Numbered from the stretch's first letter, positions 8,178 through 54,144 are shown. The stretch: DNA of 64,000 bases from Ignavibacteriales bacterium (GCA_050260055.1 JBLNBO010000046.1:1962-65961); one strand, 5' to 3'. Numbers and translations are program-made. The notes: a model not told the origin generated them from the sequence alone.

Positions 8178-9425
8178 TCATCTTATTTGCCCATTACCAT
8201 TAATAACATACTTTAATGTAGTAAGCTCTTTAAGCCCTATAGGCCCTCGTGCATGCAGCTTCTGGGTGCTTATTCCTATTTCCGCTCCGAAACCAAACTC
8301 AAACCCATCAGTAAATCTTGTTGATGCATTAACATAAACTGCTGCCGCATCAACCTCATTCTGAAACTTGCTTGCATTAAAGGCATCAGACGTTATAATA
8401 GCTTCTGAATGCCTTGTTCCATAATGATTGATATGTTCTATAGCTTCCTCAATATCTTTTACAACTTTTATCGCAATTATCAAATCCAGAAATTCTGTAT
8501 AATAATCATCTTCAGTCGCAGGCTTAACATCTAATAAAATTGCACATGTTTTTTCACATCCTCTGATTTCTACCTTTTTATCAGCCAGGCTCTTATAAAT
8601 CCGAGGCAGAAAACTATCTGCAATTTGCTGTTCAATCAGCAGAGTTTCTATTGCGTTGCATACACCAGGCCTGCTGGTTTTAGCATTGATTATAATTTTC
8701 TCTGCCATATCAAAATCAGCAAATCTATCTACAAAAACATGACAATTTCCTGTTCCTGTTTCTATTACCGGTACAGTAGCATTTTGAACCACTGTTTGAA
8801 TAAGGCCTGCTCCGCCCCTTGGAATCAACACATCAATATATTTATTTAATTTCATCATTTTAGCAGCAGTATCTCTATTAGTATCTTCTACAAGCTGAAT
8901 GCACCCGTTCGGTAATCTTGTCTTTTCAATTGCCTCATTAAGGACTTTTACAATAGCTTTGTTAGATAGTAATGCTTCGCTTCCTCCTCTTAAGATTACG
9001 GCATTGCCAGCTTTAATGCATAATCCCGCTGAATCCACAGTAACATTAGGCCTGGATTCATAAATCATCCCTATTACACCTATCGGAACTCTTTGCTGCG
9101 CAATTACTATTCCATTAGGCCTTTCCCATTTTGAAGCTATTTCTCCCACAGGATCTTCAAGTTCCTTAATCTGTTGAAGGCCTTGCGCCATAGCATCAAT
9201 TCTATCCTTATTAAGCATAAGTCTATCAACAAGCGAAGGTTTCATTCCGTTTTTCGATGCATTTTCTACATCAATAATATTCGCTGAAATTATCTCGCCA
9301 GCATTTATAATCAACTCTTCAGCCATTATTTCCAAAGCATAATCTTTCTCTTTGGTGTTTAAAACAGCTAATTTTCTAGACGCCTGTTTTGCATGCTCTC
9401 CTTTAATTATTAATTCTTCCATCAT
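8178..9425 (-). CDS. proA: Glutamate-5-semialdehyde dehydrogenase (gamma-glutamyl phosphate reductase)
   Basis: 415 aa. [50 protein letters not shown]. Confidence 0.95.
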
Positions 9426-46187: not shown

Positions 46188-47942
46188 TTATAACATTTTA
46201 CGTAAATAGGTCATTTTCTCTTTTTTGCCAACCACTTCAAATCCATGGCGCGTAGTATAGTATTCAACAACCCCGCAGCCATCCGCAGTTTCTATTCTGA
46301 GCTCATTGATTCCATATATCCGGCATAATTCAAAAGCAAGTTCAATCACTCTACTGCCGGTTCCATTTCCATCAGCTCTATATTCCGGCTTCAAATAGAC
46401 GGTAAAAACAGCAGTATTCAATCCCTGTCTGTTCAGCATCAAAACTCCCTTATTGGTACCTTTGTGCGAAACTGCAAAGCCATAGTCAGGGTTTAGGAAT
46501 GGGAGTTCGGATACAACCCCCTCTACCTCTCTGGTATGTACAATCCAATCATCAAACACAGCGTCATCATCCATGGATTTTATCCGGTGGATTGAAACGT
46601 AATTATCAAAAATTCCTTGTATTGTTTCCATGCACTCATCAAGGCTGTCGCCGATTGCAACAATACCGTGATTATAGATCTGAACCGCTTTTGCTGCAGC
46701 ATCTCTCTCGAAAGCAGAAATGATCCCCCTGCACTCGGCTTCAGTACCACAAGCAAAGTTCTCAACCATTGGGATGCCAGCAAATACTTCATCGGTATGA
46801 ATATGCATTATTGCTTTACAGCCGGTACTTTTGTACAGGAAACCATGTATTGCAGAATCGATTGAAGGCTTTACGAAACCGCAATATTTAACTTGGGCAT
46901 ATACATTTTCACCTTTCGACTCAATAACCGACCATACTCTCACCAAAGATTCTTTTTGCAGGTCTCCCTTGTTGACATTTCTTCCCGTTATTACCATGCC
47001 GTACTCATCCAACATTGACATGTTTCCATAGGTTCCACCTTCGACCACAGGTAAGAAGTTGCCTGCCGCAAGTTTCTGCCCCGCACTTCTCATAGCCAGG
47101 AAAGTTTCATCAGAAATATCTTCTTCATTTTGGATGAAGCCTTCACTTGTTATATACCTGGTATTTCCTCTTCTTAAAGCAGTCCGAACCAGTTCGCGCG
47201 CTATGCTATCCTTGCCATGAATGACTTCGCAGGATTTTTCCGGAAATATCAATAGGCCGGTATGGTCTCCTTCCCGAATTCTTGCCAGATCATTTGCCAG
47301 CACCAGGTTGCACCGGTTCTTCCTAAGGAGTTCAAACCCTACATCAAATAAGTGCTCCCGCGGAACTCCATTAAGCAGTTTGAATCCGACCAGAAATACA
47401 TGCGGCTGAATTTTTTTTATCCTTTCAATAATCTTAGGCGTTTGTTCAAGGAATACCATCATTCCTTGCTCCTTAGAAGAAATTTTGCTGCTTCTGTCAA
47501 TAGAGCCGCCGTTTTTCAGTGTTTCAACAATAATTTCTTCAATCCTTTTCTTACAGTACCCTTCTTTGAATGCCTTTACAACGGCTTCGCTAATTTCGGC
47601 AGCCATAATTGCCTGGCTTGAAACCTTGGATACTGAATAATCAGATACCGCAGCGGCATGAACCATAATATCAATTGTTTCATTTTTCAAAATTTCTTCA
47701 ACTGCATCAAGCATGGATTGAACTCCCGTTATATAAACCACTTTACCTTTGTCTACAGCTTTGGGAAGTATAGTTCTATTTGCACAAACATAGAAAATCT
47801 TCCCGAGGTTTTCTCCAAGCTGTTCGACAAACTCATCATAAATTTGAGCACCAAGCTTCCCTGTGCTCATATTTGTGATGGTTCTTACGGAGTCAATAGC
47901 CTCCGCGGTTCCCCCAGATGTAATCAAAATATTTACACCCAC
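46188..47942 (-). CDS. Triple-domain fusion of a CoaB-like (phosphopantothenate--cysteine ligase family) domain, a class II aldolase/adducin domain and a GNAT acetyltransferase
   Basis: N-terminal domain: ILITSGGTAEAIDSVRTITNMSTGKLG, HAAAVSDY, KISSKE, FLVGFKL. Middle domain: GGTYGNMSM, ITGRNV, AIMHIHTDEV. C-terminal domain: YRADGNGTGSRVIELAFE..HGFEVVGKK. Confidence 0.8.
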   Translation of the reverse strand: MGVNILITSGGTAEAIDSVRTITNMSTGKLGAQIYDEFVEQLGENLGKIFYVCANRTILPKAVDKGKVVYITGVQSMLDAVEEILKNETIDIMVHAAAVSDYSVSKVSSQAIMAAEISEAVVKAFKEGYCKKRIEEIIVETLKNGGSIDRSSKISSKEQGMMVFLEQTPKIIERIKKIQPHVFLVGFKLLNGVPREHLFDVGFELLRKNRCNLVLANDLARIREGDHTGLLIFPEKSCEVIHGKDSIARELVRTALRRGNTRYITSEGFIQNEEDISDETFLAMRSAGQKLAAGNFLPVVEGGTYGNMSMLDEYGMVITGRNVNKGDLQKESLVRVWSVIESKGENVYAQVKYCGFVKPSIDSAIHGFLYKSTGCKAIMHIHTDEVFAGIPMVENFACGTEAECRGIISAFERDAAAKAVQIYNHGIVAIGDSLDECMETIQGIFDNYVSIHRIKSMDDDAVFDDWIVHTREVEGVVSELPFLNPDYGFAVSHKGTNKGVLMLNRQGLNTAVFTVYLKPEYRADGNGTGSRVIELAFELCRIYGINELRIETADGCGVVEYYTTRHGFEVVGKKEKMTYLRKML

Positions 47943-48057
47943 TACTCATTCCTCCTTTAACGTCTGTTTGTTGAAATAAAAACAAACCATAAACCATGGA
48001 CACATATAATTCCAGATTTTATCATTATCTCATTACAATGTAAATATAAATATATAA

Positions 48058-48094
48058 AACACAAAAAAAGCGCTTAAGCGCTTTTTTTGTGTTT
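48058..48094. terminator. Bidirectional terminator
   Basis: ACACAAAAAAAGCGC TTAA GCGCTTTTTTTGTGT. Confidence 0.85.
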
Positions 48095-48100
48095 TATATA

Positions 48101-48475
48101 TTATAAGTTTGCAACTTTTACTGGCTCTTCGAATAACCCTCGTTTTACCTCTGTTGCAGTCATATGCTCGGCACAGAATTTTTCTGTTAGATAGTTACAT
48201 GAATCCCAAGGATTAATCCTGTCACCACATGTAAACACATCAACAGCCGCATAACCAAGCTCAGGCCAAGTATGAATTGTTAGGTGTGATTCTGATATTA
48301 CTACCACTCCGCTAACACCCTGCGGACTAAATTTATGGAAGGCAACTTCCCTTACCTCTGCTCCAGCCTCTAAAGCTGAATTAACCATAATTCTTTCAAT
48401 TTTGCCTGCATCATTAAGTATATCTGCAGAGCACCCATAAATTTCTGCCAATATATGACGGCCCAAAGTATTCAT
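48101..48475 (-). CDS. speH: S-adenosylmethionine decarboxylase proenzyme (small bacterial SpeH type)
   Basis: GRHILAEIYGC, VVVISESHLTIHTWPE (E-S self-cleavage site), VDVFTCG. Confidence 0.93.
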   Translation of the reverse strand: MNTLGRHILAEIYGCSADILNDAGKIERIMVNSALEAGAEVREVAFHKFSPQGVSGVVVISESHLTIHTWPELGYAAVDVFTCGDRINPWDSCNYLTEKFCAEHMTATEVKRGLFEEPVKVANL

Positions 48476-52519: not shown

Positions 52520-54100
52520 TCAAAAATTCAAATTACTTATGAACATTTCCTGAAAATCCTTATCTCTTCCAATATCATAATACTCAACTTGCCGCTGTAT
52601 TTTTAAGCATTTCTCGGTTAATTGATTATCTATCAGGCATTTCTCTGCACCTTTTATAGATGAATTTCCTACTATTACTATTTTATCCTTTAAAGGTTCA
52701 GGAATCAAACCAATTTTAATTGCATTATTAATATCTAAAAAAGTTCCAAAATTGCCTGCAATATATAGTTTATCCACATCTTTATAATCTATATTCAACC
52801 TTTTCATAATTAGATTTATTCCCGTAATAACAGCTGACTTTGCCAATTGAACCTTTCTTACGTCTTCTTGTGTAAATATAACTTGATTTTCACCTCGAGC
52901 AATTAAGAAAGCCGGCATACCTTTATATTCAATTACTTTTGAATTAGCAGATTCATCAGCGCTAATCATTCGTCCGTTTAGCTGAATGATTTCTTCTTGA
53001 AGCAATACTGCAGTCATATCAATAATTCCCGAACCACAGATAGATTTGGGCGGTATATTACCTATGGTTGAATACTCAACATCTCCGTCATGTAAGAATA
53101 CTTTATCGATCGCTCCTTTAACATTAATACTGCCGCATCTTATGCTCGCACCTTCGAATGCGGGACCAGCCGCAGTTGAACACCCAACCATCCTGGATTT
53201 ATTCCCTGCAACAATCTCTCCATTGGTCCCTATATCTAATAAAATGCTCATTTTTTCATTTTCAAATAATCTGGTTTCTAAAAGTCCCGAAACAATATCT
53301 GCTCCTAAAAATGCAGAAATGCAAGGAAGAATCAAAACTTCCGAGTCTTTTGCAATATTCAATCCTATTTTTTCCCCATTTTTAATTAAAACCCCAATAT
53401 TTTTTGCTTGGTATGGATACACACCTAATGATTGCACATCAAAGCCTAAAAACATATGCAGCATTACCGTATTCCCTGAAACTACCATCTTTGAAATACA
53501 ACTTTCTTTAAGCCCCAGACTTTTTAACGATAGAGAAATCAACCAATTAACAGCTGAAACCACCAACCCCTGCATTTCCTTGAGCTTTGACGGATTGCTC
53601 TCAACATATGCGATTCTGGATATGACATCTGCCCCATTAGCAATCTGAGGATTCATGGCGGACTCTGTACTGATTAGTTCTCCTGAAACCAAGTTAATAA
53701 TAGATAAAACAATTGTTGTAGTTCCAATATCTACCGCCGCACCAATTTTCCCAGTCCTATGCTTGGCCGAATAAATTGGTGCTGTTTGTTCAGCCTTCTC
53801 AAAAGGCCCCCCAATCCATATTTTCATCCCATTTACTGCTGGAATATGGCATGCAAGCCTTATGCCATTTTTTATTTCTTGTTCATCAAGATGCTTTCTC
53901 TCATCTTCATTAATATCTATGCTTATAGGCATCGATACCTTAACCTTGCATTTCCCGCATTTCCCAATTCCGCCGCATACTGCAGGAATAAAAAATCCCA
54001 AGGACTTTAAGGCTTGTAATACCGAATCCCCTTGACTGACTTCGTATTCAGTTGAATATTCATTTTCAATAACAGTGATTTTAATAAATGAATCATTCAT
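52520..54100 (-). CDS. RACo-like corrinoid reductive activase family protein (2Fe-2S ferredoxin plus ASKHA/DUF4445 ATPase)
   Basis: N-terminal CGGIGKCGKCKV 2Fe-2S domain, then actin-fold phosphate motifs (AAVDIGTTTIV, LLDIGTNGEIV). ATG at 54100 with an AGAGGA Shine-Dalgarno. Confidence 0.75.
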   Translation of the reverse strand: MNDSFIKITVIENEYSTEYEVSQGDSVLQALKSLGFFIPAVCGGIGKCGKCKVKVSMPISIDINEDERKHLDEQEIKNGIRLACHIPAVNGMKIWIGGPFEKAEQTAPIYSAKHRTGKIGAAVDIGTTTIVLSIINLVSGELISTESAMNPQIANGADVISRIAYVESNPSKLKEMQGLVVSAVNWLISLSLKSLGLKESCISKMVVSGNTVMLHMFLGFDVQSLGVYPYQAKNIGVLIKNGEKIGLNIAKDSEVLILPCISAFLGADIVSGLLETRLFENEKMSILLDIGTNGEIVAGNKSRMVGCSTAAGPAFEGASIRCGSINVKGAIDKVFLHDGDVEYSTIGNIPPKSICGSGIIDMTAVLLQEEIIQLNGRMISADESANSKVIEYKGMPAFLIARGENQVIFTQEDVRKVQLAKSAVITGINLIMKRLNIDYKDVDKLYIAGNFGTFLDINNAIKIGLIPEPLKDKIVIVGNSSIKGAEKCLIDNQLTEKCLKIQRQVEYYDIGRDKDFQEMFISNLNF

Positions 54101-54144
54101 AAGGAATCCTCTATTCTTAGAAGGAATCACGGGCAGATCACCAA

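Follow-up and report, generated by a model that had tools for sequence, protein, structure and literature searches.

The 64,000-nucleotide window of DNA analysed here (Ignavibacteriales bacterium, GCA_050260055.1 JBLNBO010000046.1:1962-65961) carries on its minus strand a gene in which three protein domains are joined in a single unbroken reading frame, as seen in the open reading frame (ORF) listing of the window (Table 1). An N-terminal domain of the CoaB type, i.e. phosphopantothenate-cysteine ligase (PPCS), is followed by a domain of the class II aldolase/adducin fold (Ald in the following) and by a C-terminal GNAT domain. A single ORF of 584 residues with these three domains had been proposed in a first-pass annotation made from the sequence alone, and the ORF listing, Pfam searches and the AF2 model agree with this proposal. 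The motifs quoted in that annotation are all present in the translation, those of the CoaB part being ILITSGGTAEAIDSVRTITNMSTGKLG (residues 5-31), AAAVSDY (96-102), KISSKE (153-158) and GFKL (186-189) and those of the Ald part GTYGNMS (303-309), ITGRNV (318-323) and HIHTDEV (380-386). The architecture is conserved in relatives of the gene and is linked, by genomic position and by fusion, to coaC, coaB and coaE. Thus, the PPCS/PPCDC step of CoA synthesis is repeatedly accompanied by the Ald domain, usually together with the GNAT domain.

Table 1. Coordinates of the fusion gene, its domains and flanking signals in the window, and of the L17-type genes at loci of relatives (numbered within the respective locus).
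Feature	Position	Strand	Basis
Whole gene, 584-residue CoaB - aldolase-like - GNAT fusion; GTG start at 47942, stop codon 46188-46190	46188..47942	(-)	ORF list, sequence, full-length homologues
CoaB / PPCS domain, residues 1-262	47157..47942	(-)	Pfam, NCBIfam, Foldseek, phmmer
Helical insertion in the CoaB domain, residues ~104-150, between AAAVSDY and the KISSK loop	47493..47633	(-)	alignment, AF2, HMMER gap versus 2gk4
Class II aldolase/adducin-fold (Ald) domain, residues 263-448	46599..47156	(-)	Pfam, PDB profile search, residue mapping
GNAT-fold domain, residues 449-584	46191..46598	(-)	family Pfam matches, PDB profile, AF2 and Foldseek
Shine-Dalgarno sequence AAAGGAGGA; GGAGG core ends 8 nt 5' of the GTG	47950..47958	(-)	read from sequence
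Promoter-like site TTTACA-17-TAAAAT, TG upstream	48016..48044	(-)	consensus match only
Terminator-like hairpin and T-run, 4 nt past the fusion stop codon	46144..46184	(-)	predicted on both strands
Terminator-like hairpin of upstream speH, parting speH from the fusion gene	48054..48097	(-)	predicted
L17-type gene, L017	10701-11861
L17-type gene, L026	4189-5340
L17-type gene, L036	10701-11849
L17-type gene, L056	2892-4019
L17-type gene, L067	10700-11821
L17-type gene, L018	2015-3163
L17-type gene, L033	1650-3760
L17-type gene, L038	7816-9999

That three genes were joined by a sequencing or assembly error, a possibility already raised in the first-pass annotation, has in our view practically no chance of being correct. 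No point in its support was found. The frame is intact, a separately assembled Logan contig yields the identical ORF, and a third contig carries a 424-residue fragment, identical to the query, that comprises the later part of the CoaB domain together with Ald and GNAT. The full three-domain architecture in a single frame is common to about 75 protein clusters at 33-49% identity. As a word-indexed homologue search with a profile returned only seven hits, an exhaustive HMMER search was used instead. With the Ald-domain profile it yielded 34 representatives (50% clustering) at E<1e-30, and in the full-length ones the domain lies at the same position. The AF2 model of the full-length protein (pLDDT 91.3, pTM 0.85) is confident across the domain junctions and contains no disordered linker. 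The second assembly and the roughly 75 homologous clusters in effect rule out a merge, and the triple fusion is thereby confirmed as a real single gene. Almost all of the fusion-bearing sequences stem from metagenome assemblies.

The N-terminal domain matches the Pfam family DFP/CoaB (PF04127) with an E-value of 1.2e-28 and 100.6 bits (cut-off 22). Its closest solved structure is the monofunctional CoaB of S. pneumoniae, 2gk4 (Foldseek E 3e-21, TMt 0.85; phmmer E 1.4e-29), and the PPCS structures of E. coli, M. smegmatis, yeast and human are all matched by Foldseek at E<1e-10. It contains the Gly-rich motif, AAAVSDY, the K-I-S-S-K loop, VGFKL and ANDL, and these are invariant across the family. 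R20 and N24 align with E. coli CoaB R206 and N210, and AAAVSDY with AAVADY; the register of K153 relative to E. coli K289 is ambiguous by three residues. The residue numbers of AraD, FucA and CoaB were verified on the E. coli sequences. In the E. coli enzyme, the Gly-rich motif with N210, AAV.DY and the Lys of the K-x-K-K loop mark the nucleotide and acyl-cytidylate site. Invariant in 31 family members are T8, G10, G11, D17, V19, R20, N24, S26, G28, A98, D101, K153, N217 and D218. The helical insertion within the domain is modelled by AF2 as two helices (residues 110-127 and 131-144); its length varies in the family alignment, and some members do not have it. The window protein gave no match to the CoaC flavoprotein domain (PF02441), and TIGR00521 covers it only over model positions 186-299. 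Judged by its sequence, the N-terminal domain looks like a working PPCS, and its assignment to the monofunctional CoaB type in the first-pass annotation is upheld by the Pfam match, the PPCS motifs and the similarity to 2gk4.

The second domain matches Pfam Aldolase_II (PF00596) with an E-value of 1.3e-16 and 61.5 bits (cut-off 22.2), a family matched by 31 of 31 family members. In a search of its profile against the PDB, 2irp was found at 1.6e-8, as were FucA, AraD, adducin and MtnB. The first-pass annotation had pointed to metal ligands in this domain, and these could be mapped onto both AraD and FucA: D362, H380, H382 and H425 align with AraD D76, H95, H97 and H171 and with FucA E73, H92, H94 and H155, and all four are invariant across the 31 sequences. 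The same holds for the motifs GTYGNMS, TGRNV and KPSID as well as for R321, K325 and K358. The phosphate site is kept in part, N307 and S360 aligning with FucA N29 and S71 and R321/N322 replacing T43/G44. The stretch between the HxH pair and the conserved P-C segment is about 15 residues shorter than in the aldolases, where it carries AraD D120 and FucA Y113; an equivalent residue is absent in the fusion, although this depends on the alignment. Absent as well is the C-terminal Tyr tail of the aldolases (FucA Y209, AraD Y229), in the place of which the GNAT domain is found. We take AraD D120/Y229 and FucA Y113/Y209 to be second-sphere catalytic acid/base residues. Cys398 of a 'PCG' motif was considered as a special catalytic residue and rejected, since AraD and FucA of E. 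coli have this P-C as well. Among the characterised subfamilies compared (MtnB, AraD, FucA, OtnC and others) the best equivalog was MtnB with 35.7 bits against a cut-off of 137, and the rest scored far below their cut-offs. In our reading, the Ald domain would bind a metal and a phosphate but would not have the machinery typical of aldolases and epimerases. Since it apparently lacks the acid/base loop known from FucA and AraD, it is most likely a ligand-binding domain for a phosphorylated molecule of the pathway. From the dehydration, epimerisation or decarboxylation step that had been suggested for it earlier, the metal site stands, whereas the shortened loop casts doubt on chemistry of the aldolase, dehydratase or epimerase kind.

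The shortened catalytic loop would also suit a purely structural role, in which Ald and GNAT assemble CoaB, and perhaps CoaC, CoaD or CoaE, and neither bind nor convert anything themselves. A domain of the aldolase fold normally forms tetramers. The active site of CoaB lies at a dimer interface and the oligomeric state matters for its activity (PMC7794376), which would agree with such a scaffold, and a protein with a degenerate CoaB domain and Ald that is encoded beside a real coaB (see below) suggests hetero-oligomers. For mere structure, however, one would not expect four metal ligands and the phosphate residues to be invariant across 31 sequences at 33-49% identity, nor the Tyr and Cys of the GNAT domain to be kept, and we judge this explanation to be improbable.

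The C-terminal domain of the window protein is recognised only weakly by Pfam (E 0.025, 15.3 bits, under the cut-off of 20.7). Despite this, its earlier designation as a GNAT domain proved correct. Among the family members, Acetyltransf_7 (PF13508) is matched in 7 of 31 and Acetyltransf_1 (PF00583) in 4 of 31 at E<=0.01, and a profile of the domain finds GNATs in the PDB, with PseH at 2.8e-4 and Naa50 and others as well. Modelled by AF2 with a pLDDT of 93, the domain is matched to GNAT structures by Foldseek at an E-value of 5e-8. The Foldseek search yielded 539 PDB matches at E<=0.001, and all of the 50 matches listed are of the GNAT fold, with NAGS 2r8v and HP0935 8iym at the top (TMq 0.75-0.77). 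Motif A (Q/R-x-x-G-x-G/A), which in GNATs binds the pyrophosphate of acetyl-CoA, reads R522-A-D-G-N-G527 in the window protein. Family-invariant residues of this domain are H469, F513, T552, C556 and Y562; of these, Y562 lies at the usual position of the general acid, and C556, T552 and H469 are invariants specific to the family.

The loci of relatives were inspected next to a baseline of coaB loci from species-representative genomes, obtained from a scan with the full-length family profile; the scan gave 80 loci, ranked by best segment, nearly all of which were monofunctional coaB. In 78 of these 80 monofunctional Firmicutes loci, coaC adjoins coaB. The closest full-length homologues of the window protein, P0002 (locus L001, 49% identity) and P0004 (locus L003), are encoded in the same coaB slot, directly beside a coaC of 183-195 residues, and a search of about 10 kb around either fusion gene gave no further sequence resembling CoaB. 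Directly upstream of P0002, a group II intron-type reverse transcriptase (RVT_1 and GIIM) and an IS200-like Y1 transposase are encoded (L001, 7143-8895), which suggests mobile-element activity beside this copy.

In further relatives the same parts are combined differently. P0028 and P0053 have CoaE (dephospho-CoA kinase) appended at the C-terminus; P0028 reads CoaB-Ald-GNAT-CoaE, with the GNAT signature retained before CoaE. P0164 is a CoaC-CoaB-Ald protein, and a GNAT gene of 163 residues starts 2 nt downstream; the contig has an archaeal-type GatD gene and is probably archaeal. P0161 is a CoaB-Ald protein followed by an overlapping GNAT gene of 139 residues. The stand-alone GNATs of L099 and L107 match the family GNAT profile (4e-18 and 7e-19, respectively), and both retain E(W/F)..H and T...C.V..YY, the signatures of the family. 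At L088/L089, coaB (DFP E 6e-31) and coaC are followed by a 528-residue protein with a degenerate CoaB domain, Ald and GNAT. Alignment of the L088 protein with the query begins only at residue 170 (37% identity); the protein has no DFP match, and the half of CoaB that binds the nucleotide is gone.

A further arrangement occurs at eight loci of Bacilli/Clostridiales type, where coaC-coaB or a fused coaBC is followed by a gene of about 375 codons, here termed L17-type (Table 1). Its C-terminal domain is a specific relative of the Ald domain (hhalign probability 99.3%, E 5e-20). The L17-type proteins comprise about 350-386 residues, their hosts are uncultured Bacilli, Erysipelotrichaceae and Clostridiales metagenome-assembled genomes (MAGs), and a divergent LysR gene is often present. 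At L033 and L038, coaC and coaB are separated by two tandem L17-type copies. Neither Pfam nor NCBIfam gave a match for the N-terminal domain of the L17-type proteins. A comparison of full-length profiles had hinted at a degenerate CoaB, an idea that was dropped because the N-terminal domain by itself gave no significant match (E 0.052, probability 1%). No GNAT gene was found near the L17-type operons. Both coaE and coaD lie within 10 kb at L038, and at L004, a locus of a fusion homologue, coaD lies about 5 kb downstream. Apart from coaC, coaB and the divergent LysR gene, no other neighbour recurs at the fusion and L17-type loci. At L036, a 281-residue protein with a weak protein-kinase match was seen, which is not conserved. 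The order in P0028 had hinted that Ald stands in for CoaC, or Ald and GNAT for CoaC and CoaD; this was rejected, since coaC is adjacent or fused in several cases and coaD is found near L004 and L038.

The module occurs in at least six arrangements, as fusions or within operons, and its conservation extends from uncultured Firmicutes to what appears to be an archaeal lineage. The examination of neighbourhoods and distribution that the first-pass annotation had called for shows the trio recurring, either fused or as neighbouring genes, next to genes of CoA synthesis. The recurrence of CoaB, Ald and GNAT in different fusion states argues for functional coupling.

Other partners occur in distant relatives. 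CoaB-Ald-NUDIX proteins were found among NCBI proteins of Myxococcales and Planctomycetes MAGs and on groundwater contigs (P0077, P0080, P0086, P0188; L101/L102), and a methyltransferase-CoaB-Ald protein in a Woesearchaeota MAG (P0082, P0083, P0087; L100). At L107, a methyltransferase-like gene lies directly upstream of the CoaB-Ald and GNAT genes. P0248 (843 residues) has no relation to the CoaB family; in it, a pyridoxal phosphate-dependent Orn/Arg/DAP decarboxylase is followed by a domain of the class II aldolase fold at the C-terminus, and it may be a polyamine/methylthioadenosine-salvage fusion.

These distant relatives bear on the pathway that had been proposed for the fusion at the outset, namely three consecutive steps on another phospho-metabolite, separate from CoA synthesis, with a CoaB-like domain of changed substrate. 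Besides the NUDIX and methyltransferase fusions and the methyltransferase-like gene at L107, scores under the PPCS equivalog cut-offs and the monocistronic position of the window gene, with no coa genes nearby, would be in line with it. On the other hand, all PPCS motifs are kept, and homologues show coaC adjacency, a fusion to CoaC and fusions to CoaE. Where the CoaB domain of the fusion has decayed, it is accompanied by a normal coaB-coaC pair. Furthermore, in a neighbour-joining tree, which was calculated with no bootstrap and is indicative only, 30 of the 31 fusion CoaB domains form one clade that branches beside the housekeeping monofunctional CoaBs of Firmicutes. We therefore regard a separate pathway as rather improbable; it is possible mainly for the distant relatives linked to NUDIX or methyltransferase domains. 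Thus, from the original interpretation the three fused and conserved domains remain, whereas a pathway apart from CoA synthesis is not supported: the intact PPCS motifs, the adjacency to coaC and the CoaC and CoaE fusions of homologues place the gene within that synthesis.

The reading that we favour is that the gene encodes a PPCS of the CoA pathway, of the monofunctional Firmicutes type, with a conserved two-domain accessory module that tunes the synthesis of 4'-phosphopantothenoylcysteine (PPC). For this package as a whole we see roughly even chances, and our confidence that the protein is a CoA-pathway PPCS is higher than that. In such a scheme, the CoaB domain would activate 4'-phosphopantothenate with CTP and ligate L-cysteine to yield PPC, as its intact motifs and the synteny of its homologues suggest. 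The conserved residues of the Ald domain point to binding of a divalent metal through D362, H380, H382 and H425 and of a phosphate through N307, S360 and R321. Its ligand might be the 4'-phosphopantoyl head group of phosphopantothenate, PPC, phosphopantetheine or CoA. As the phosphate of the 4'-phosphopantoyl group lies three carbons from an alpha-hydroxy-carbonyl, like that of the AraD substrate, this group would be an attractive candidate. The GNAT domain, with its motif A RADGNG, Y562 and C556, would bind acetyl-CoA or CoA. Through the Ald-GNAT module, the rate of PPC synthesis could then follow the acetyl-CoA/CoA pool, be it by allostery or by acetylation of the K-I-S-S-K loop of CoaB. A precedent is the regulation of the CoaB step by CoA and acyl-CoAs in mycobacteria, where CoA thioesters inhibit the CoaB activity of M. 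tuberculosis CoaBC (PMC7794376).

Several observations weigh against this favoured reading. The CoaB domain matches NCBIfam PRK06732 at E 6.9e-61, yet with 206 bits it stays under the cut-off of 265, and for TIGR02114 it reaches 165.8 bits and thus falls below the equivalog cut-off of 217.2. We attribute these missed cut-offs to general divergence and to the insertion of about 45 residues, which lower the score. coaC, a second coaB and the other CoA genes searched for are absent from the 64-kb window, and among 11 distinct fusion loci a coaC lies within 10 kb in only about 3 (about eight others lack it). Motif A of the GNAT domain is variable: by eye, many members fit [QR]xxGx[GASNH] and some do not. 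The invariant metal ligands and the Tyr and Cys of the GNAT domain fit catalysis at least as well as sensing, the distant relatives with NUDIX or methyltransferase domains resemble small-molecule tailoring more than regulation, and the ligands of Ald and GNAT are predicted from sequence and modelled structures.

The main rival reading is an additional catalytic step within CoA synthesis, in which Ald would hold the phosphopantoyl head group of PPC or 4'-phosphopantetheine and GNAT would acetylate the distal end of this molecule from acetyl-CoA, or in which the metal centre would perform a new reaction. The product could for example be S-acetyl-4'-phosphopantetheine, carried on by CoaD and CoaE to acetyl-CoA. 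The metal ligands together with R321, K325 and K358 are invariant, as are Y562, C556, T552 and H469 of the GNAT domain, which are also kept in the unfused orthologues. In P0028, Ald and GNAT are set between CoaB and CoaE, and both stay with CoaB across very different fusion states. Against this stand the lack of a free amine for N-acetyltransfer in PPC and phosphopantetheine, S-acetylation being unusual for GNATs, the shortened acid/base loop of FucA and AraD, and the L17-type operons with their Ald domain and no nearby GNAT. Moreover, we know of no such acetylated intermediate in bacteria. An extra step is an unlikely but serious alternative to the tuning of PPC synthesis. More broadly, we put forward only tentatively that the module is an unrecognised component of CoA biosynthesis at the CoaB/CoaC step. 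It would either perform a new reaction on PPC or 4'-phosphopantetheine, such as an acetyl transfer for which a 'head-group' domain binding metal and phosphate provides guidance, or be a switch, driven by acetyl-CoA, through which PPCS is acetylated or gated.

In the window, the fusion gene forms a transcription unit of its own beside speH, in agreement with its earlier description as monocistronic: it has its own promoter-like site and is flanked on both sides by terminator-like hairpins (Table 1). A scan of the gene and its flanks against Rfam gave no riboswitch, only terminator-hairpin noise far under the gathering scores. The upstream neighbour (48101..48475) is the AdoMet decarboxylase gene speH (TIGR03330, 151.9 bits against a cut-off of 75.65). 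A functional tie to speH or polyamines was considered and dropped, since an AdoMet decarboxylase adjoins the gene at none of the homologue loci inspected. Further neighbours are ndk, a CheR-like gene, ruvA, a CPBP protease gene, a CorA-like gene and MTHFS. About 12 kb from the fusion gene lies the mercury-methylation pair hgcA (32993..34180; NF040863, 510 bits against a cut-off of 275) and hgcB (32679..32981; NF040864, 138 against 99), directly followed by an ACR3 arsenite efflux gene (31569..32657), the whole cluster occupying 31569..34180 on the minus strand. A gene similar to corrinoid reductive activases is found at 52520..54130. The named relatives of the ProA encoded in the window (8178..9425, minus strand) at 66-68% identity are Clostridia (Pseudoclostridium thermosuccinogenes and Clostridia MAGs), and the gene content of the window resembles that of Firmicutes. 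On these grounds, the label 'Ignavibacteriales' of the MAG looks like a binning or labelling error.

The long and sparsely annotated contigs that bear homologues (180-652 kb) were also considered as phages. This idea gained no support: a scan of viral contigs (IMG/VR) with the Ald-domain profile found nothing and GenBank phages did not contain the fusion. GenBank phages do carry homologues of the CoaB domain by itself, with 28-29% identity to the query CoaB (LR756500.1, 23450-24058; LR756501.1/LR756503.1, 218579-219238); these records are huge uncultured phages of 462 kb and 735 kb. The contigs of L004, L085/L086, L087 and L093 (75-652 kb), which carry fusion homologues, are densely packed with short unannotated ORFs, and their surroundings include Apyc1-like anti-Pycsar hydrolases, a LAGLIDADG-interrupted NrdD, T4-type RNA ligase/PNK, a CCA-adding enzyme and ClpB. 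They may belong to divergent small-genome bacteria or to very large mobile elements.

The synthesis of CoA, usually in five steps, is among the best-studied essential pathways, and its regulation is placed at PanK and lately, in mycobacteria, at CoaB. The recurrence of two extra domains with PPCS/PPCDC means that there is an unrecognised control mechanism or reaction at this step. In the literature searched, no description of a fusion or association of CoaB, aldolase and GNAT domains was found, and in a review from 2025 on the CoA metabolism of gut bacteria, coaBC and the split genes of Streptococcus and Enterococcus are the only forms named. In the source databases, the fusion proteins are unnamed or called 'phosphopantothenate-cysteine ligase', and our results provide an annotation rule for them. 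Ald and GNAT make up a conserved accessory module of the CoaB/CoaC step that is apparently undescribed. It may have been overlooked because it is found almost only in uncultured organisms. For experimental work it is a tractable target, as it is one soluble protein with commercially available substrates and clear point mutants.

When compared with known systems, the fusion is closest to the monofunctional CoaB of Streptococcus and Enterococcus (TIGR02114/PRK06732; 2gk4). Both have the same fold and share the motifs GGT.E.ID.VR.ITN.S.GK.G, AAVSDY, KISS, VGFKL and ANDL, and the closest homologues of the fusion have the same coaC-adjacent neighbourhood. The fusion differs by about 320 additional C-terminal residues, which form two domains, by the helical insertion, by scores below the equivalog cut-offs and by the lack of coaC near the gene in the window. 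The bifunctional CoaBC/Dfp of most bacteria and archaea (TIGR00521) is likewise a CoaB fused to a domain of the same pathway, and P0164 combines both types of fusion; the window protein, however, is without CoaC, and its partners are the C-terminal Ald and GNAT domains instead of an N-terminal decarboxylase.

With AraD, FucA and the MtnB-like 2irp the Ald domain shares the fold, the HxH pair, the distal His and the GN.S and PS motifs, and it has an Asp ligand as in AraD (D362 corresponding to D76). It differs from AraD and FucA in the shorter segment between HxH and P-C, in the absence of the Tyr tail and in the exchange of FucA T43/G44 for R321/N322. Unlike class II aldolases in general, the fusion-type Ald domain was never found alone in our searches, but always with a CoaB-type partner, and its equivalog scores are far below cut-off. 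For the GNAT domain, the comparison is with PanZ/PanM, a GNAT-fold sensor of acetyl-CoA that controls PanD in pantothenate synthesis, and with Rv0998, a protein acetyltransferase of the sensor domain plus GNAT type. Here the likeness is conceptual and consists in the GNAT fold, the motif A of the window protein and the precedent for a sensor of the CoA pool within the pathway. In contrast to typical GNATs, the fusion has the invariant C556 in place of the usual Asn-type motif B position, and its GNAT domain is fused to CoaB instead of acting on PanD.

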